Source: Nitrososphaerota archaeon (GTDB lineage Archaea > Thermoproteota > Nitrososphaeria_A > Caldarchaeales > Calditenuaceae). Taken from it: a stretch of 64,000 bases of DNA. Shown here piece after piece: positions 12,140-53,084 of this stretch (positions are counted from its first letter, which is position 1; each line of letters opens with the position of its first letter). The notes below the pieces were generated by a model. The model ran no database searches. It was not told the DNA's origin and was given only the letters and a program-made list of their open reading frames with translations. Where the stretch lies: contig JAWBQR010000001.1 in NCBI GenBank assembly GCA_038845265.1, forward strand, positions 32,001-96,000, in the 5' to 3' direction. Made by a program: the position numbers and the translations under genes.

Positions 12140-12856
12140 ATGAGACTAAAAAGATTAGCTGCACCAAAATCCTTCATAATTCCAAGAAAGGGAAAGAAGT
12201 TTGCTCCTCACCCAGTAGCGGGCCCACATCCGAAGAATTCTTCCATCCCACTTCTCCTCATCATTAGGGACTACTTGAAGTATGCTTCAACCGGGCTGGA
12301 GGCTGAGAAAATAATAAAAATGAAAAAAGTAATGATTGATAATCGATATGTCACTGAACCTAGATATCCTGTGGGATTAATGGATGTCATATCGTTGCCA
12401 GACGTCAATGAGCATTATAGAGTAATACCGATCTATAAGAGAGGATTAACATTAATTAAAATTGATGAGGATGAGGCTAGTTTTAAATTAGGCATGATAA
12501 TTCGAAAGACGATGGTTAAGGATGGCGCTATTCAGTTTACACTACATGACGGGAGGAACCTACTTTTCAAAAATCCCTCCTCGGATGTAAAGTTAATTCC
12601 AGTAGGAGATACATTTAAGATAAGTCTCCCAGACCAAGAATTACTTACACACCTCGAATTGGCAGAAGGTAACTATGGGTTGATTATCGCTGGTTCGAGG
12701 TCTGGACTCCATGGAAAAATAATCAAGATTGATAAGACGCCAAAATATCCTGCTAAACCGTTAATCCAGCTTGAGTCTAATATAGGAACAATATCTACTA
12801 TCCTGAAGTACGTAATGGTAGTAGGGGATGAAAAACCATGGCTGAAACTAAGTTAG
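12140..12856 (+). CDS. rps4e: 30S ribosomal protein S4e (eS4)
   Basis: LKRLAAP, GPH, PVGLMDVI, LHDGRN. Confidence 0.97.
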   Translation: MRLKRLAAPKSFIIPRKGKKFAPHPVAGPHPKNSSIPLLLIIRDYLKYASTGLEAEKIIKMKKVMIDNRYVTEPRYPVGLMDVISLPDVNEHYRVIPIYKRGLTLIKIDEDEASFKLGMIIRKTMVKDGAIQFTLHDGRNLLFKNPSSDVKLIPVGDTFKISLPDQELLTHLELAEGNYGLIIAGSRSGLHGKIIKIDKTPKYPAKPLIQLESNIGTISTILKYVMVVGDEKPWLKLS

Positions 12857-13368
12857 AAAATATCAATAGACGAATCAGGATATCAAAGGTTATAATTAAT
12901 TCAAGCCTAGGCGCAGCAGCTGCTAGGCTTGAAAAAGCATCGAAGATACTAGAAGAACTTACAGGACAAAAACCATCTCTTAGAAGAGCCAAAAAAACAA
13001 TAAGAGGGTTTGGAATTCATAAGGGAGAACCAATTGCAGTGATGGTAACTTTGAGGGGGGAGAAAGCAATTGAATTTTTAAAGAATGCACTAGCTGCAGT
13101 TGGAAATAAGTTAAAAGAAAGCAGCTTCGATGAGTATGGAAATTTTGCCTTCGGAATTAAAGAGCACTTGGATATTCCCGGAACTAAATACAATCCAGAA
13201 GTTGGAATTATTGGTATGGATGTGATAGTTAATGTTGATAGACCTGGACGTAGAGTAGAACTAAGGAGAATAAAAAGAAGCAAAATTGGTAGAAATCATA
13301 GGATAACAAAAGAAGAATCAATAGAATTCATTCAAAAAGAGTTTAACGTAGAGATAATTAGGGAGTAA
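12838..13368 (+). CDS. rpl5: 50S ribosomal protein L5 (uL5)
   Basis: LTGQKP, FGIHKGEPI, GNFAFGIKEH, YNPEVGIIGMD. Confidence 0.97.
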   Translation: MAETKLENINRRIRISKVIINSSLGAAAARLEKASKILEELTGQKPSLRRAKKTIRGFGIHKGEPIAVMVTLRGEKAIEFLKNALAAVGNKLKESSFDEYGNFAFGIKEHLDIPGTKYNPEVGIIGMDVIVNVDRPGRRVELRRIKRSKIGRNHRITKEESIEFIQKEFNVEIIRE

Positions 13369-46545: not shown

Positions 46546-47898
46546 TTGAATAAAGAAGGTGAAATCTTACATAAAATTCTTCATAAAGTTGGATACGAAA
46601 AAAGAGGGGAGTTAGAGAAGAGGATTAATCAACTTATTAATGAAAATCCAAGACTGTCAAGGCTCGGTGCTCTCTACCTAATCGGCGAAGAGCTCGGAAT
46701 ATTTGAACAGGTTGATTCTGTAGAATATACTGTGCCGATCGCTAAGCTTGTTGGGGGACTAAACAACGTTAATGTTCGCTGCAGAGTAATAGGAAAGAGA
46801 GGCCCATTCAAGACAGATAAGACTGAGTATGCATACTTGAGACTTGGGGATAACTCTGGTGTAATCTCAGCAATAGCTTGGAATGAAGCACTAAAAAAGA
46901 TAAAAGAAATGAATGTTGATGTAGGAGATGTAGTAATTATCAAAGATGCTTATACGAGGGAAAGCATAAATGGAAAGACAGAGCTTCACTTAAATAAGAC
47001 CACAGTCATTAAGAAGGACGAAGACTCAGATATTCAATCATTAGAAGCCTTTTTCAAAGAAGAATTGCCTTCAAACGAAAAAGAGTTTGAAGTAGACGTC
47101 AAGGCAAAAATATTGGGCCTCTCCGACGAACTCTCGATTTATTATCGAGGGGAAAAAATACCCTTGAGGGAAGCTTTACTATTGGTTACCGATAGATTAA
47201 TCAGCACGACAGCATGGAGGGGTCAAGTTGAACTCTTCAAAGATGCATCACCGGGACAAACGGCATTAATTGCAGCTGCTAAGTACCAAAATAAAAAATT
47301 AATTATGACTTCTAAAACGTGTATAAAGTTCATTACTGACACACCCGAAGATGCCATACCTCCACTAGAGATAATTATCCTTGATAAATTAAATTTGAAG
47401 GACGAAGACTATATTTACATTGCCGCTTGTTCTAATTATATCCTTTTTGTTAAACACCCCGACATTCAATTAGGACGGAGCTACATCGTAAAGAAATACG
47501 AACTAATCTACAGTAATAAAAGATGGTTGTTAATTCCGCAAGAACTGATTGAAATACAGAAAAACTCAGCAGGGGGCGTCCAGCCTATTTATTCATTAAG
47601 CAGTCATTCAGATGATTTAACATATGTTTGCGTCGAAGGACGAGTCGAGTCGAAGACACCTCTAGCCTCCAAACAATTAAAAAACGGAGAAGAATTAGAG
47701 ACTCTTAATTTTTGGCTAACAGATGGTGTTACAAATATTTATTGTAGGGCCTTTGGTAAAAGCGCATCCATAATTAATTATACACCAGAGAAATCTTTAA
47801 TTCGACTTAAATGGGCCAGGGTAAGAAAGACCAAGTTCGGTTATATAGAATTAATTGTGGATGATGCATCAAATATAGAGCTTATTAGGGAAGGTTAA
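46546..47898 (+). CDS. Replication protein A-like multi-OB-fold ssDNA-binding protein
   Basis: N-terminal GALYLIGEELG helix; OB folds (LGDNSG.I..IAW, LTDG..IYCRAFG). Confidence 0.78.
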   Translation: MNKEGEILHKILHKVGYEKRGELEKRINQLINENPRLSRLGALYLIGEELGIFEQVDSVEYTVPIAKLVGGLNNVNVRCRVIGKRGPFKTDKTEYAYLRLGDNSGVISAIAWNEALKKIKEMNVDVGDVVIIKDAYTRESINGKTELHLNKTTVIKKDEDSDIQSLEAFFKEELPSNEKEFEVDVKAKILGLSDELSIYYRGEKIPLREALLLVTDRLISTTAWRGQVELFKDASPGQTALIAAAKYQNKKLIMTSKTCIKFITDTPEDAIPPLEIIILDKLNLKDEDYIYIAACSNYILFVKHPDIQLGRSYIVKKYELIYSNKRWLLIPQELIEIQKNSAGGVQPIYSLSSHSDDLTYVCVEGRVESKTPLASKQLKNGEELETLNFWLTDGVTNIYCRAFGKSASIINYTPEKSLIRLKWARVRKTKFGYIELIVDDASNIELIREG

Positions 47899-48763
47899 CA
47901 TCAGTAGAATCCTTTACATTTTTTACTGAGAAGTCGCCAAACTCCTGTGTGTCTTTTACTGTACGTTCTGTCTCAGGACTATATCTATATCCACTTAGTA
48001 TCGAAGCTTGAGCACCTAGGTTGCGGAGCTCTAATACCCTCAAGGGCGGCCCAATGCTTATTCCTTTATTCCTTATAATTTCAAAGGTATAGATCGTAGA
48101 GTCGGCGGGTGACCATCGCATCTTTCTTACATATAGAGTTCTTATTAGGCGTCCTCCAACTCTGACGAGACCAATGACGATTACTCCTGATGAGAGATAT
48201 TCTTCGTATCCAAATCTGCTGAGCTTATTTGAGCCTGTCGGTATATCGCATGTGATCACTGTGGTAGCGCCTATTCTTTCCTCTAAGAATAAAATTATCT
48301 CGCGAATATATTCGCGAACAGCGAATTCATCCCCTGCGCCAAATGCCATCGCCGAGATCGGGTCTAACACAATTCTAGAGACCTTTCCCCCTCTTGTCAT
48401 TTTGACGATTGTGTCGATGTATGCTTTGCTATCTTTCCTGTATTTTCCTAAATCTTCAGAGTATATTCTTATCTCAAATGGGTAGAAGTGTCCTGCCTTG
48501 TAATAGCTCCAAAAATCCCACCCAAGCGTTAAGGCCCCATCAAGCACTGCGGATATTCTCTCGTCTAATGAGACATAAGCTACGTCTTCACCCTTTTGAA
48601 GACCATCCATCAAAAATTGCAAGCTCATTATTGTTTTGCCTACTCCTGTCTCGCCTGTAATTAGGTATGTCTTGCCACGTATAAAGCCGCCTCCTAGTAT
48701 TCTGTCAAGCATCGGTATACCTGTAGAGACTCGTTCGATCAGCATTACATTAATACCATGCAT
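47885..48763 (-). CDS. Single-domain KaiC/RAD55 family ATPase
   Basis: VSTGIPMLD..LGGG, GETGVGKT, VLDPIS, EEYLSSGVI, RKMR; likely start at 48745. Confidence 0.9.
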   Translation of the reverse strand: MHGINVMLIERVSTGIPMLDRILGGGFIRGKTYLITGETGVGKTIMSLQFLMDGLQKGEDVAYVSLDERISAVLDGALTLGWDFWSYYKAGHFYPFEIRIYSEDLGKYRKDSKAYIDTIVKMTRGGKVSRIVLDPISAMAFGAGDEFAVREYIREIILFLEERIGATTVITCDIPTGSNKLSRFGYEEYLSSGVIVIGLVRVGGRLIRTLYVRKMRWSPADSTIYTFEIIRNKGISIGPPLRVLELRNLGAQASILSGYRYSPETERTVKDTQEFGDFSVKNVKDSTDVNLP

Positions 48764-48792
48764 AAGGATTATTTAAGTAAAACCTTAATTCA

Positions 48793-49092
48793 CTATCCAA
48801 ATAAGCTACCGAAGCCTGCAAGAGCATTTTCATCCTCTTCTTTGAGCTTTTTTAATACCTCCCCTTTTTCCTGCTCTTCAATCTCTTTGCCGGCTTCGCC
48901 AATGATCTCTTTTATGCGTTTGAGTTGTTCCTCAGTGCCTATAACTCTTATATAGTAGCCATCTTTACCCGTTAACAGTTTGGCGTCTTTGAATACTAGA
49001 TTTGCCTTTGAGGCTACCTCATCACTCATCAATGCCTGTCTTATCGTTTCTAATTTTTCTCCTGCGATCAAGTAAATTTGTTGGTTCTCCAT
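48793..49092 (-). CDS. Hypothetical alpha/beta protein with ribosomal P-stalk-like C-terminal tail
   Basis: C-terminus EEDENALAGFGSLFG resembles archaeal aP1/aP0 tail EEEALAGLSALFG; the N-terminal part is not P1-like. Confidence 0.7.
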   Translation of the reverse strand: MENQQIYLIAGEKLETIRQALMSDEVASKANLVFKDAKLLTGKDGYYIRVIGTEEQLKRIKEIIGEAGKEIEEQEKGEVLKKLKEEDENALAGFGSLFG

Positions 49093-49190
49093 TGGTATCC
49101 ATCTTAATGTATAATAAGACTACTATATTAACACATTCAATGAGTAAAATTTATTCTCTGGGAACAAAAAAATATTTTTGGCCGAGGGCA

Positions 49191-49832
49191 TTGAGTCAAA
49201 AAAGCGATTCTCCTATCATCAGGAAATTAAACGAGTTGGGAATGGAGCCTGGAATAATATATGAAACAATAATCACATCGGTAGATCGTAATTGCAACCC
49301 TCATTCTGCTGCGATGGGAATAATACTTGAAGAAAATGAAGATTCTGTACTGATTAAAATAAGGGCTTATCCGTCATCAAAGACGGGGCAGAATCTTTTA
49401 ATTAACGGCCTCGGAGTCGTGAACATCACTGATCCTGAATTACTTATTAGGGTAGCGTTAGACATGCCTCCAGAAATTGTGTACGTCAAGTCATCCTGCA
49501 TCGGTGTACCTCGAATAAGCAATGCTGCTGCTTGGATAGAGTTCAAGGTCATAAATATCTCTAAGAAAAACGAGATAATTGAGTTTATATGTTTACCGCT
49601 AAATGTTGATTATTTTGAGGTGAAGCCAAAGCCCTATACGAGGGCAGTTTATGCTCTGCTAGAGGCTATAATTCATGCATCAAAAATCAGAGCATACAAA
49701 GAACTTGGAGATTTGCATAAGGTCTCCGAACTACAAGACCTGATAAATATGAATTTAAAAGTTGTTGAAAAAGTAGCGTCTAAATCGAGATATGAATTGA
49801 TAGTAAATGAAATCAAGAAGAGGTATTTTTAG
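49191..49832 (+). CDS. DUF447 family protein (split-barrel)
   Basis: YETIIT, PHSAAMGI, SKTGQNL, VVNITDP, RAVYALLEAIIHASK; TTG start after GAGGG. Confidence 0.8.
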   Translation: MSQKSDSPIIRKLNELGMEPGIIYETIITSVDRNCNPHSAAMGIILEENEDSVLIKIRAYPSSKTGQNLLINGLGVVNITDPELLIRVALDMPPEIVYVKSSCIGVPRISNAAAWIEFKVINISKKNEIIEFICLPLNVDYFEVKPKPYTRAVYALLEAIIHASKIRAYKELGDLHKVSELQDLINMNLKVVEKVASKSRYELIVNEIKKRYF

Positions 49833-50352
49833 ATTTAACGACACTATCTCTCAAGATGAATAGAATATCTATCAAGAGTACTGATAATATTAGCAAGTAG
49901 CTTATTGGATAGTAGCGCTCATCTTTTAAAATGAGCGCTAAGTACCCGAGACCAGTCCAGTAAGGGATTTTTATGCCTGTCCACTTACCAATTATCTGTT
50001 CTGGAGGTATTGGTGACCAAGGATCGGGATCTCTGTTTGCGTCTCCCTTTGTGATTATCCCGGCTGGGGTCTTAGCTATAGCTCTGTGAATTATCGGCGC
50101 CTCGTATCCCCATAACTTATAGACGATTACGTCTCCATTGTCCGGAGATGCAACTATTGAGTCATAGTCGACGCCCGTTATTACAAGGATATCGCCGACC
50201 TCTATGGTGGGCCTCATGCTTCCCGATTTTACAACCACTAATGGTGAAGGAGTGCCTAAGAGCATACTTATCAGCAAGAACAACATCAGTGCGAGAAAGA
50301 TAGTCGTTCCCAGCAATAATAAGTTCTTAAATATTCCTTTATAGATACTCAT
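49813..50352 (-). CDS. Signal peptidase I (Sec11/SipW type)
   Basis: VVKSGSMRPTI..GD, IIHR, TKGDAN..PD; ATG at 50352 overlaps upstream stop (ATGA). Confidence 0.92.
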   Translation of the reverse strand: MSIYKGIFKNLLLLGTTIFLALMLFLLISMLLGTPSPLVVVKSGSMRPTIEVGDILVITGVDYDSIVASPDNGDVIVYKLWGYEAPIIHRAIAKTPAGIITKGDANRDPDPWSPIPPEQIIGKWTGIKIPYWTGLGYLALILKDERYYPISYLLILSVLLIDILFILRDSVVKSKNTSS

Positions 50353-53084
50353 ACGTTTTTCTTGACCGGTTTCGGATGACGTTTCTTCCAATCTACACTC
50401 CGACCTCCAAGAACTGGACTTCTCCTAGTAGGTTTAACCTTGAAGGACCTGATGACGCTAAAGATGGAAACAGCGCCTAATGATGCCGAGGCCATCAGAG
50501 AAAGCATTAATCCAAAAGGACTAGATCTGCTCGTTACCAGAACCTTAGGCTCTACGTTATCAACAGATATCACATATGAATGCCTTGCATCATCAACACT
50601 ATATTCTACGATATAATCACCCTTTGCAAGCGAGACTAAGATTTTCCCATCCATGTCTGTCTCTCCAGATGTTATCAATTTATTGTCTCGTCTAAACTCA
50701 ACGTTTATTCCTGACATTGGATTCTCAGCCAAGTCGATTATGTAAAGTGAGAATTCATAAACATCGGTAGGCATGCTTAACTTTGTAGGTCCATTATGCT
50801 GAACCAACTTCTCGGCAACCTTGACTCCCTGATACTCTATCCAGACATTGTAGTTTGAGGATGGCAACTTGTATTGAAAGACCCCATCCTTAATATCTCC
50901 TACAAATACTTCCAGTCCGTCTTTTTCAAAATGTATAAGGGCTCTTTCAAGTGGTTCATCACCCCTCTCAGTAACTTTATAAGAATTCACCAGCATCGGG
51001 TATACCTTCGAAACTATTTCAATCGTTTGTCCATTTCTATCGATTTTATGAGCATCCTCATAAACATTTAAACCCAAATACTTCACCTTAATATTCATTG
51101 TTCCATTCGGCACCAGCATAGCCTCGATTATTCCTTTTTCATTAAGCTTGCCGACCAATTGATAATCACCAGCGATTCCCTCAAGCTCAGCGTTTGCTAG
51201 TGGCTCCTTTTCGCCGTCCACAACCTTAATAATAATTTGGTATACGCCTGTCCCAGATATGGTTAGAGTGGTTCTTGTCGGTGATAAATCATTTGGACCT
51301 GAATAAACTTTTATTCCCTTGTAATAAATAGTTGTAAAGACCCGCGAGAGGGGTACATTTTCAAACTCAGCCTCTCCGTTATCATTAGTTATTTTAGTAC
51401 TTTTATATTGACCAATCGATAATAAAATACTTGCACCAACAAGTTTATTATCGCCTGAATAATCTAAAGCAATAATTTTAACGTTTGATACAGATGCAAT
51501 AATGTCTAATTTTGATTCGTCAATTGACCTTTTTTCTATGTTTCCTTCGGCTACTAATTCTCCCATATAGAAGAATTGATAACTATACTTTATACGTAAT
51601 AGTCCCTTTACGATGGTCGAGTCTTCCTTAATATCGACCTCGCCAATCTTTTCACCATCCTGAAGCATCAAGATTAGTTTTCCACTTAGAGTCCTATTAT
51701 CTAATGAAAGTGCAGTAATTTTTACCTGTTTTGCATCTGGGGCTATTGTTATTATTGATTGGTGTTGTGGAGCATCTATACTTCCAGCACCGACAACATC
51801 AGAATTAATTACCAATTCATATTCATACTTAACTAAAGGGTGATCGCGATAAATTGCTGCTCCTTCAGAGATTTTCTTCTCTACTTGATATTTACCAAAC
51901 TTAATTCTCAGAGAGATATCTTCTTTCATATCTTTGAGCTTGCCGAATAGGTCTGCAGTTGATACTTTAATGCTGAAATCTCCAATTGAGGCAATAATAG
52001 AGATTGCGCCTATATCGCTCTCCTTAATAACCCCGCTGTATATCTCGGAGCCTTCAAAAAAGACTTTAAGTACGTAGTCGCGATTTTCATAAACTATTCC
52101 GAAGTTTAATATGCCATCATTTGTAGTTGCCTCAGCATAGGTGCGGCCATCATAAATCAGTCTGCCTGTATAAGTAAATCCTGCCGCCGTGTTTCCAGAC
52201 TTACTCTTGATGTTTACGATTAAGGTTTTCAATTGAAGACTTACATCAATTACTCTATTTCTGTTCAATGTAAAGGAATCAGATTTGTAGATCTCTTCTG
52301 ACTTATACTCAACCGTATATATGTATGTTCCCTGCGGAAGCAACTTGAAAGTAGCATTCCCATCAGTACCTGATATAAGTGTCGCAAAAGGAGTCCCAGT
52401 CACTTCTCCTCTCCATAGTTTAACCGTCGCTCCCTTAACTGGTTGCAGCGAGCTGTCTCGTAATCGAAGTGTAAGCCTGTAGAGATTTAGCGTTACTACA
52501 TATTCATATTCATCTGTAAGTGTTATGTCTTGACTGCTAGTCACAGCGACTTTATCTTCATACTTAATTGTCAGGTGGTATGTAGTTCCGTTTGGAAGAT
52601 TCTCAAAAACAACATATCCATTGCTATCCGTAACCTTTCTCTTATCTACATCTGGGTCTGTCTCGGTTGAAGTTATGTTTACCTTTGCGTTTGGCACTGG
52701 ATCAAGCTTCTCCGAAGACATTACTCTAATTTTCAAATTAAATACTCCCACACGGATTGTCTTAGGAGAACTAGGAGAGGAGTAATTCCAATCATCTATA
52801 TAACCAACCTCTCTATTCAGATATAACGCCTTCAAGATGTATGACTCATTTTTCAACGCTGTTAAAGATACTTTACCACTAGAGTCAGACGTACCTTCAG
52901 CTTCTACCTCATTATTAGTTTTATTTATAAGCTGAACCTTCACTCCTTTCAGTGGCGAGCCATGATAATTCTGGACCGTTATTTGGAAAGTTGTGTCCGC
53001 GAGAACAGGTATTGAAGTGAATTGAAAAATAATAACTAGTAGAAAGAAGGAGGTGATTAGCATTGTTGCTGAGGTTATTTTCAT
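50349..53084 (-). CDS. Large membrane-anchored cell-surface protein with about 10 tandem beta-sandwich (carboxypeptidase-regulatory/prealbumin-like) repeats
   Basis: Signal peptide; repeated V.D..G.P..GA.V.L...TD..G...F..LP.G.Y units; C-terminal TM and basic tail; many NxS/T sequons. Confidence 0.8.
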   Translation of the reverse strand: MKITSATMLITSFFLLVIIFQFTSIPVLADTTFQITVQNYHGSPLKGVKVQLINKTNNEVEAEGTSDSSGKVSLTALKNESYILKALYLNREVGYIDDWNYSSPSSPKTIRVGVFNLKIRVMSSEKLDPVPNAKVNITSTETDPDVDKRKVTDSNGYVVFENLPNGTTYHLTIKYEDKVAVTSSQDITLTDEYEYVVTLNLYRLTLRLRDSSLQPVKGATVKLWRGEVTGTPFATLISGTDGNATFKLLPQGTYIYTVEYKSEEIYKSDSFTLNRNRVIDVSLQLKTLIVNIKSKSGNTAAGFTYTGRLIYDGRTYAEATTNDGILNFGIVYENRDYVLKVFFEGSEIYSGVIKESDIGAISIIASIGDFSIKVSTADLFGKLKDMKEDISLRIKFGKYQVEKKISEGAAIYRDHPLVKYEYELVINSDVVGAGSIDAPQHQSIITIAPDAKQVKITALSLDNRTLSGKLILMLQDGEKIGEVDIKEDSTIVKGLLRIKYSYQFFYMGELVAEGNIEKRSIDESKLDIIASVSNVKIIALDYSGDNKLVGASILLSIGQYKSTKITNDNGEAEFENVPLSRVFTTIYYKGIKVYSGPNDLSPTRTTLTISGTGVYQIIIKVVDGEKEPLANAELEGIAGDYQLVGKLNEKGIIEAMLVPNGTMNIKVKYLGLNVYEDAHKIDRNGQTIEIVSKVYPMLVNSYKVTERGDEPLERALIHFEKDGLEVFVGDIKDGVFQYKLPSSNYNVWIEYQGVKVAEKLVQHNGPTKLSMPTDVYEFSLYIIDLAENPMSGINVEFRRDNKLITSGETDMDGKILVSLAKGDYIVEYSVDDARHSYVISVDNVEPKVLVTSRSSPFGLMLSLMASASLGAVSIFSVIRSFKVKPTRRSPVLGGRSVDWKKRHPKPVKKNV

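Follow-up and report, generated by a model that had tools for sequence, protein, structure and literature searches.

What is a ribosomal stalk tail doing at the end of a small protein whose gene lies outside any ribosomal protein operon? The question is raised by a single-copy gene in the window analysed here, i.e. the whole 64,000-nucleotide stretch from the genome of a Nitrososphaerota archaeon (features in Table 1). Its predicted product, P0001, is 99 amino acids long and ends in EEDENALAGFGSLFG, also given as ...KKLKEEDENALAGFGSLFG. The stalk tail is the only handle known to serve archaeal and eukaryotic ribosomes in gathering their GTPases and ABCE1, and in the literature searched it has so far been described on stalk proteins only. 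A preliminary description of this DNA had read the protein as a non-ribosomal adaptor or decoy that captures translational GTPases; the reading frame and the tail it quoted were confirmed to the letter.

Table 1. Features of the P0001 locus, with positions counted from the first letter of the window.
Feature	Position	Strand	Basis and remarks
Gene of the stalk-tail protein P0001	48793..49092	-	99 codons, ATG start, stop at 48793-48795; ORF list and translation
Acidic α/β domain, residues 1-72	48877..49092	-	AlphaFold2 pLDDT 90-94 across these blocks
Long C-terminal helix, residues 73-98, bearing the acidic run and the tail	48799..48876	-	DSSP of the AlphaFold2 model
P-stalk-like tail, residues 84-99, KEEDENALAGFGSLFG	48796..48843	-	Aligned with the last 16 residues of aP1
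AT-rich spacer, 47 bases, between the P0001 gene and the divergent DUF447 gene (ATG 49140)	49093..49139	.	Sequence and ORF positions
KaiC-family ATPase gene	47885..48763	-	Pfam KaiC, E = 1.5e-55; starts 29 bases downstream of the P0001 gene

A scan of the whole genome (G000; 34 contigs, 1,374,253 bases) covered all stop-to-stop frames of at least 50 aa in six frames and retained those ending in G-hydrophobic-[GSAT]-x-hydrophobic-F plus 0–4 residues. Five frames matched this pattern, and only two of them, P0001 and the canonical aP1 of the same genome, carried an acidic run ahead of it, making it unlikely that the P0001 tail arose by chance. The canonical aP1 (C10:9261-9590) has the MEYIYAALLL-type start and an Ala/Pro hinge (...APAAAQPAAPATQAPAAEA...), and ends in EEEALAGLSALFG, also given as ...KKEEEALAGLSALFG. 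Eight of the last ten positions are identical between the P0001 tail, ALAGFGSLFG, and that of aP1, ALAGLSALFG, with all hydrophobic positions kept. Like aP1, P0001 thereby combines an acidic run with a hydrophobic C-terminal tail ending in L/I-F-G.

Upstream of the tail, no such likeness was found. Pfam searches returned no match of P0001 to Ribosomal_60s (PF00428) at E ≤ 10 and none to the rRNA-binding domain of uL10 (PF00466), the best Pfam match being an unrelated DUF at E = 0.13. In NCBIfam, the archaeal uL10/P0 model weakly matched P0001 with its final 43 positions, over residues 56–99 (E = 0.14). When the family profile described below was compared by hhalign with 33 aP1 sequences, the last 16 columns (84–99) aligned alone, at 50% identity (P = 2e-4, probability 46%). 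Pfam, hhalign and an AlphaFold2 model agree that the N-terminal helical dimerisation domain of aP1 is absent from P0001, the model being α/β instead. An Ala/Pro-rich hinge of the aP1 type is lacking as well: residues 66–83 are rich in Glu and Lys, and residues 73–98 are modelled as a helix. The preliminary description had reported the same two absences, and the confinement of the aP1 alignment to the last 16 columns, together with the missing PF00428 match, speaks against its own caveat that P0001 might turn out to be a recognisable aP1/L12 variant. P0001 is not a variant of aP1, which was itself present in all 41 related genomes searched, but an aP1-like tail on a non-aP1 body.

That body was modelled by AlphaFold2 from an alignment of P0001 with 83 homologs (A1, 84 rows), with a mean pLDDT of 88.6 and a pTM of 0.74. 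Strands were predicted at residues 3–9, 31–36, 46–52 and 68–70, and helices at 11–23, 37–40, 54–67 and 73–98. Over residues 1–72 the elements run strand–helix–short helix–strand–strand–helix–strand, an order that the β-α-β-β-α pattern guessed beforehand fits. In the C-terminal helix the pLDDT is 82, then 61 over the last ten residues. The N-domain carries a conserved motif, D24-D/E25-x-V-S28-R/K29-x-S31-I-x-x-R/K35-D36, plus G52, and is acidic, as is the protein at large (median pI over the 84 members of 5.1 for the first 70 residues and 4.9 for the whole protein).

Several searches for a structural relative of this domain returned generic matches. Foldseek against the PDB gave zero rows at E ≤ 0.001 for the P0001 model; the best rows were PII/GlnK and one KH domain (E 0.014–0.06, TM 0.4–0.5), and Pfam P-II was matched neither by P0001 nor among the families listed for the 84 members. 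VIA-align, run over 48,161 chains, placed FAD-oxidase cap domains, MecA/YpbH C-domains, KH, ACT and xRRM structures at the top with Z of up to 7.9, a value within the tool's stated background for models without a true match (KH structures reached Z 5.5–6.5). A KH profile matched 5–7 of the 84 members below threshold (best E 0.0016–0.018), and the topology of type I KH domains is compatible with the model, but the position of the GXXG loop reads D-D-x-V-S-R. A profile search of PDB sequences returned designed helical proteins alone (E ≥ 0.048). One source labels four close homologs SpoVG; SpoVG is not among the best 25 of the 122 families matching the 84 members at E ≤ 1, and no SpoVG structure appears among the Foldseek or VIA-align matches. 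A specific relative of the body was therefore not found above background in Foldseek, VIA-align or the PDB profile search, nor in Pfam. Because the fold matches are generic, the KH loop is replaced and the family is acidic, we treat the body as a small acidic α/β domain of an unassigned family.

A word-indexed search identified 12 close relatives of P0001, all of 99 aa. Exhaustive searching of representative sequences extended the family to 100 proteins at E ≤ 1e-3, 15 of them at E ≤ 1e-10, nearly all of which are 90–106 aa long and align through the very last residue. The tail motif sits at the C-terminus of 91 of these representatives (among them the 2434-aa P0093, which probably has it by chance), and a near-variant with the first Gly replaced, xFGxI[FL], in six more; the remaining three comprise one fragment and two unrelated long proteins. 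Nearly invariant columns in A1 are M1, G93 and G95. Conservation amounts to 99% for G95, 94% for G93, 87% for F98 and 86% for A90; position 97 invariably holds a hydrophobic residue (I, L, V or M), and ahead of A90 there are four positions that are mostly acidic. These conserved columns and the prevalence of the motif make the tail the most constrained part of the family, so that the tail conservation to which the preliminary description had tied its reading is borne out.

The family tail also has a form of its own. Across phyla it reads G-F-G-x-I-F-G, as opposed to G-L-[SAG]-x-L-F-G for aP1 in the same genomes (31 genome pairs); as most of the paired loci had been picked with AxEGFGxIFG, the separateness of the two forms rests mainly on the unbiased set of 100 representatives. 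Owing to the same ascertainment, an analysis of whether the family tail and the aP1 tail co-vary within genomes was discarded as unusable. In Terraquivivens-type genomes, the family tail and the aP1 tail differ at the same positions. Eukaryotic P1/P2 proteins end in ...DDDMGFGLFD. The G-F-G core of the family tail is presumably closer to this eukaryotic tail than to archaeal aP1, with the spacing after G-F-G (x-I-F-G) being archaeal.

Unusual architectures were met in a few members, e.g. tandem two-domain forms (P0033, P0089) and P0029, in which a LAGLIDADG intein interrupts strand 3. In one 988-aa protein, encoded on a single contig, the last ~100 residues form a family member starting from its own Met behind a peptidase/β-helix protein, probably a gene-calling fusion. 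None of these forms is informative as to a partner. Database entries for the family are all named 'hypothetical' or 'uncharacterized', save for stray automatic labels (SpoVG, MgtE). The full-text literature searched yielded the known work on aP1 with aEF1A, aEF2, aIF5B and ABCE1 and that on recently described archaeal hibernation factors, but no publication on a stalk tail borne by any protein outside the stalk, nor any on the Methanocella accessions of the family, in keeping with the earlier remark that no function had been described for such a protein.

Within the order of the source organism, all 18 genomes of its own taxonomic family (f1) and eight of nine of a second one (f3, including genomes titled Candidatus Terraquivivens) encode a member, as do none of the four genomes of f2 and none of the nine of f4. 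A profile search of 201 genomes of the phylum retrieved 18 full-length matches, all in G000, f1 or f3, and five further partial matches (E 4e-4 to 7e-4), two of which consist of the tail columns alone in 116-aa frames. Beyond this phylum, 99 of 121 genomes sampled from a DPANN phylum represented by a locus titled Aenigmatarchaeota carry the family, as do 119 of 121 sampled from another, Micrarchaeota (a count that takes in G378, a genome used for it alone). The family was likewise found in 81 of 151 genomes of a phylum whose loci are titled Methanobacteriota or Thermoplasmatota archaeon (here the G218 phylum), and in 40 of 201 genomes of the phylum that includes Methanocella and Methanothrix. 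Five closed genomes of the latter encode proteins letter-identical to 'hypothetical proteins' of named methanogens, namely Methanocella arvoryzae, Methanocella sp. MCL-LM, M. conradii HZ254 (Mtc_2243), M. paludicola SANAE and Methanothrix thermoacetophila. Genomes of the two near-universal DPANN phyla measure 0.5–1.5 Mb, and such prevalence in phyla of minimal genomes makes a core function likely and points to constitutive action more than to a stress decoy. P0001 is best explained as belonging to an old archaeal family, as yet unnamed, of cytosolic proteins of ~98 aa, in which an acidic α/β domain is followed by a long helix with the P-stalk tail motif, i.e. an acidic run and then A-x-x-G-F-G-x-I-F-G.

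Gene neighbourhoods vary between lineages. At the present locus, P0001 is flanked by genes for the KaiC-like ATPase, the DUF447 protein, a signal peptidase, an OB-fold protein and GcvT. The AT-rich spacer is presumed, from the arrangement of the reading frames, to hold the promoter region of both the P0001 and the DUF447 gene, and the KaiC-like gene may be co-transcribed with that of P0001. Near-identical contigs for the locus were found in two metatranscriptome runs of one study. One contig of 173 nt lies inside the P0001 reading frame (48874–49046, 0 differences, depth 5), and another of 988 nt (47845–48832, 8 differences) runs from the KaiC-like gene through the 29-nt spacer and takes in the final 40 nt of the P0001 frame; coverage of the DUF447 gene (49105–49974) was zero in both runs. 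Being assembled contigs, from which strand, transcript ends and level cannot be read and which may include DNA carry-over, they are consistent with transcription of the P0001 gene, perhaps jointly with the KaiC-like gene. Sampling of about 3% of each of two raw-read RNA runs (X5, X6) gave zero reads for the locus, a depth too shallow to weigh either way. A KaiC-like gene immediately follows in the three loci of the same genus (L002, L003, L009); in L004, from a neighbouring genus, a gene of the same KaiC cluster stands two genes downstream of the family gene, and the other f1 loci (L005–L008) have different neighbours. The adjacency is specific to the genus, not to the protein family.

Among 78 related loci, 62 were usable in that the target was kept in ORF picking. 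The commonest neighbours, an AmmeMemoRadiSam radical-SAM gene and a gene for a coiled-coil protein with a PLFVKIDKY motif (30/78 loci each), were mainly those of Aenigmatarchaeota. In 7/62 usable loci the family gene immediately follows, on the same strand, the gene for the CCA-adding enzyme, and in 5/62, all from Micrarchaeota, that for ribosomal protein S8e; these gene orders are weak links to translation. The preliminary statement that the gene stands outside any ribosomal protein operon thus applies at this locus but not at the five micrarchaeal ones. Methanocella and Methanothrix loci have unrelated neighbours. A conserved operon partner was sought and not found among these loci, the commonest neighbours recurring within single lineages only, and the variable neighbourhoods point to no partner.

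Of the known stalk clients, aEF1A was the sole one modelled in complex with P0001, using the genome's own protein (P0140, 432 aa) and the family alignment. Three runs gave ipSAE values of 0.79, 0.81 and 0.78, compared with 0.00, 0.00 and 0.02 for the three controls, with 105–111 confident contacts and a partner pLDDT of 87–88. When the tool was calibrated, 58 of 80 solved complexes came up to this mark, as did 2 of 110 mismatched pairs, counts that hold only roughly here because a custom family alignment was used. The modelled interface takes in residues 83–99 of P0001, including every residue from 89 to 99, plus 29–36, 39, 46, 51–53 and 56; on aEF1A it comprises 15–16, 120–143, 176–182, 329–338, 367–370, 381–385, 409, 415–416 and 421–423. 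In a study of A. pernix aEF1A, R140, R329, F331, F401, R409, I421 and I423 were identified from crystal structures and mutants as residues in contact with the aP1 tail, removal of the last three aP1 residues abolished aEF1A binding, and the same conserved Phe of the tail is reported in hydrophobic pockets of aEF2, aIF5B and ABCE1 (PMC6791870). Positions 331, 409 and 423 of the aEF1A modelled here are I, R and V. As the modelled interface overlaps the mapped aP1 site, the multimer modelling suggested in the preliminary description places the predicted tail where experiment puts that of aP1, with a score of 0.79 against 0.02 for the best control. Since complexes of the aP1 tail with aEF1A are already solved, this pass may be recall, and the model shows a likeness to aP1 docking, not binding.

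The model also brings the body of P0001 into play. Of the seven N-domain positions with the highest conservation, four (R/K29, S31, R/K35 and G52) fall within the modelled interface; over all 72 N-domain positions, interface residues were not significantly more conserved (Mann–Whitney p = 0.33). Such N-domain contacts with aEF1A would be new relative to the solved aP1 structures, and the modelled use of a conserved N-domain edge implies that the body may do more than passively carry the tail. With aP1, P0001 shares the acidic run, the same-spaced hydrophobic tail and modelled docking in the same pocket between domains 1 and 3 of aEF1A. It differs in that its tail is joined to a folded α/β domain by a continuous helix, and in having its own form, GFGxIFG compared to GL[SA]xLFG.

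On the strength of the motif and how well it is conserved, of the distinct fold and the taxonomic range, and of the docking model, we infer with a probability of roughly 55% that members of this family bind aEF1A, and probably other stalk clients too, via the tail and in trans. The tail hydrophobics F94, L97 and F98 would insert into the domain-1/3 pocket of aEF1A used by aP1, the conserved N-domain edge would add contacts on domain 3 and, by analogy with aP1, the tail would probably fit aEF2, aIF5B and ABCE1 as well. Having one tail and lacking both the aP1 dimerisation domain and an aP0-docking domain, the protein would work in trans: it would hold factors, or escort them, off the stalk and thereby compete with it for them. 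Purely competing with the stalk would seem a costly function for a gene that is near-universal in minimal genomes. The earlier adaptor-or-decoy proposal is partly supported, by the aP1-like tail on a foreign body and by the predicted tail-dependent docking on aEF1A; the sequestration, hibernation or delivery to another complex that it put forward are conjectural, and the near-universal occurrence favours a constitutive role over that of a stress decoy.

The same tail might instead work on the ribosome itself, if the N-domain docked there or on aP0/aP1 as an accessory stalk component, supplying an extra factor-recruiting tail that could replace one lost from aP0. Indeed, the 296-aa aP0 of this genome (C10:13028-13297) ends in ...AKILEKLTSSS, without an acidic or hydrophobic tail, and aP0 was also tail-less in all five family-bearing genomes checked from other phyla. 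In the G218 phylum, the four complete aP0 frames from family-bearing genomes are short (282–294 aa) and tail-less, a fifth being cut by a contig end, while three of five genomes without the family have an aP0 of 339–342 aa ending in ...GLGALFG or ...GLNALFG (of the other two, one has an aP0 that ends acidic without the motif and one an aP0 that was not resolved). Across the 151 genomes of that phylum, a second Ribosomal_60s match, taken as a crude proxy for a tailed aP0, was rarer where the family was present, with an odds ratio of 0.42 and a Fisher p of 0.02 that ignores relatedness (at least two matches in 17 genomes with and 29 without the family, one match in 56 with and 40 without). The near-universality of the family in two DPANN phyla and its position behind S8e in Micrarchaeota point the same way. 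Against this stand f2 (0/4) and f4 (0/9), which belong to the same order and lack the family although their aP0 is tail-less too (none of 23 credible aP0 C-termini from 28 loci in the order, f2 and f4 included, carries a tail), and 17 genomes that by the proxy appear to hold both a tailed aP0 and a family protein. Strict complementarity with a tail-less aP0 was thus rejected, and a weak tendency remains. Moreover, the N-domain is acidic, does not look like an rRNA binder and bears no similarity to the dimerisation domain of aP1, and in most lineages the family gene is far from ribosomal protein genes. The weak match to the uL10/P0 model is a likeness to the aP0 tail, but P0001 is without the uL10 domain, and the real aP0 of this genome and of its relatives is the one devoid of a tail. 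On balance, we consider a ribosome-bound component unlikely.

Other explanations would take the protein away from the stalk clients altogether. A small KH-like or PII-like regulator or nucleic-acid binder, with a stalk-like tail serving some partner apart from translation factors, would fit the generic α/β fold matches (PII/GlnK at Foldseek E ≥ 0.014; KH, ACT and xRRM at VIA-align Z ≤ 7.9), the sub-threshold KH matches in 5–7 of 84 members, and neighbouring genes that mostly have no role in translation. However, none of these fold matches exceeds the search background, the acidic D-D-x-V-S-R motif replaces the KH GXXG loop in a family that is acidic overall, and the aEF1A model scores far above its controls. 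The tail, as the most constrained part of the family, further keeps each hydrophobic position that PMC6791870 gives as essential for factor binding, and such a regulator appears quite doubtful to us. Very improbable is a decoy shielding the stalk from tail-hijacking proteins such as ribosome-inactivating-type toxins or viral factors. Its sole support is an analogy, ricin-type and Shiga-type toxins being known to bind eukaryotic stalk tails, whereas no defence or toxin genes recur beside the family gene in the related loci and no archaeal toxin of the stalk-hijacking kind was found in the literature searched. Single-copy, vertically conserved genes that are near-universal in whole phyla are, besides, unlike defence genes. 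Among known factors, aEF-1β (EF1_GNE, PF00736) is comparable in size (~90 aa), in its small α/β fold and in binding aEF1A, but hhalign shows no sequence relationship to P0001 (probability 0.08%, E = 0.63), and the modelled site of P0001 is the domain-1/3 pocket. Replacement of aEF-1β was rejected, since 39 of 41 related genomes, the present one among them, have PF00736. The hibernation and association factors HibA/AHA and aRDF are likewise small trans-acting proteins affecting translation, but have HPF/RaiA-CBS or other folds and bind the decoding or tRNA sites of the ribosome (PMC13324472); none of them is known to carry a stalk tail.

The preferred reading of a trans-acting, tail-mediated binder of aEF1A leaves the preliminary description largely on target: P0001 is a free-standing stalk-tail carrier on a different fold, and belongs to a large uncharacterised family. 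More tentatively, and at well under even odds, the family may form part of the general machinery of archaeal translation, hitherto unrecognised, as a stalk tail that is detachable and acts in trans. It would either escort aEF1A and the other stalk clients from one ribosomal round to the next or dock as a separate ribosomal subunit in place of a lost aP0 tail; in both cases a soluble protein of 98 aa would take over part of the stalk's recruitment of factors in whole archaeal phyla, including the cultured Methanocella and Methanothrix. Binding and competition assays should be simple, as the protein is small, soluble-looking and found in culturable organisms, and the family allows the idea of a factor pool to be put directly to the test, namely whether a free tail competes with, feeds or replaces the stalk. 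That aP0 has no tail in many lineages alters the stoichiometry of seven tails assumed for the archaeal stalk. A conserved non-stalk bearer of the stalk tail would be a new player in factor recruitment or homeostasis.

On the minus strand of the window, the stalk-tail gene is followed by a KaiC-family ATPase gene, which starts 29 bases past its stop, and a single metatranscriptome contig spans both. Convergent with the ATPase gene lies that of a 450-aa protein, whose sole significant match is an OB-fold (tRNA_anti-codon, E=6e-9) and which is possibly an RPA-like single-strand-binding protein. A 911-aa ORF, whose start region is overlapped by a signal peptidase gene, combines a signal- or TM-like N-terminal segment, a long repetitive beta-rich stretch and a C-terminal TM segment with a basic tail; its predicted product looks like a surface (S-layer-type) protein.

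Coordinates of genes in the window and in related genomes
Feature	Position	Strand or orientation
KaiC-family ATPase, 292 aa	window 47885-48763	(-)
450-aa protein	window 46546-47898	(+)
Signal peptidase	window 49813-50391	
911-aa ORF	window 50349-53084	(-)
PLFVKIDKY coiled-coil neighbour, example	L030:5420-5932	same strand as family gene
AmmeMemoRadiSam radical SAM gene, example	L015:3731-4771	upstream, divergent from family gene
Two-domain tandem family form	G215:C1:760826-761407	
aP0 (uL10) of the source genome (locus L109, outside window)	C10:~12400-13300	

Two neighbours recur around family genes in related genomes. In ~24 of the 62 usable loci (among L010-L072), a gene for a 130-240-aa protein lies directly or closely downstream on the same strand. 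This protein, for which Pfam and NCBIfam returned no match, bears M-x-F-F-x-K-K at its N terminus; its other features are a linker of low complexity, the conserved motif PLFVKIDKY and a coiled coil. The other neighbour, upstream and divergent, encodes a radical SAM enzyme of the AmmeMemoRadiSam system (TIGR04337, E=1e-91). Of 78 loci, 30 (among L010-L070) have it next to the family gene, and in three Terraquivivens-type loci the two are separated by a distance of two or three genes.

Several family members depart from the usual ~98-aa form. P0029 (485 aa) carries an insert with a LAGLIDADG homing-endonuclease domain in strand 3, between ...GYY and CYISG. With a Cys as its first residue and a terminal ...SN followed by Cys, this insertion looks like an intein; inteins usually occupy conserved positions within important proteins. 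Tandem two-domain forms (P0033, 194 aa; P0089, 175 aa) retain the stalk-like tail in the second copy only. P0171 (988 aa), found on one contig only, is a papain-like peptidase/beta-helix/TM protein that continues, with no intervening stop, into a complete family member having its own Met start; the fusion probably arose as an artefact of gene calling or read-through.

The source-genome aP0, the 296-aa stalk base protein, is without the acidic/hydrophobic C-terminal tail. Across the further aP0 loci covered (L110-L138, L139-L143 and L184-L187), all 23 credible aP0 ends from the same order and the aP0 of nine genomes from three other phyla also lack it. Three other genomes encode the usual tailed, 340-aa form. 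If tail-less aP0 is general, the stalk in many archaeal lineages would carry six tails, not seven.
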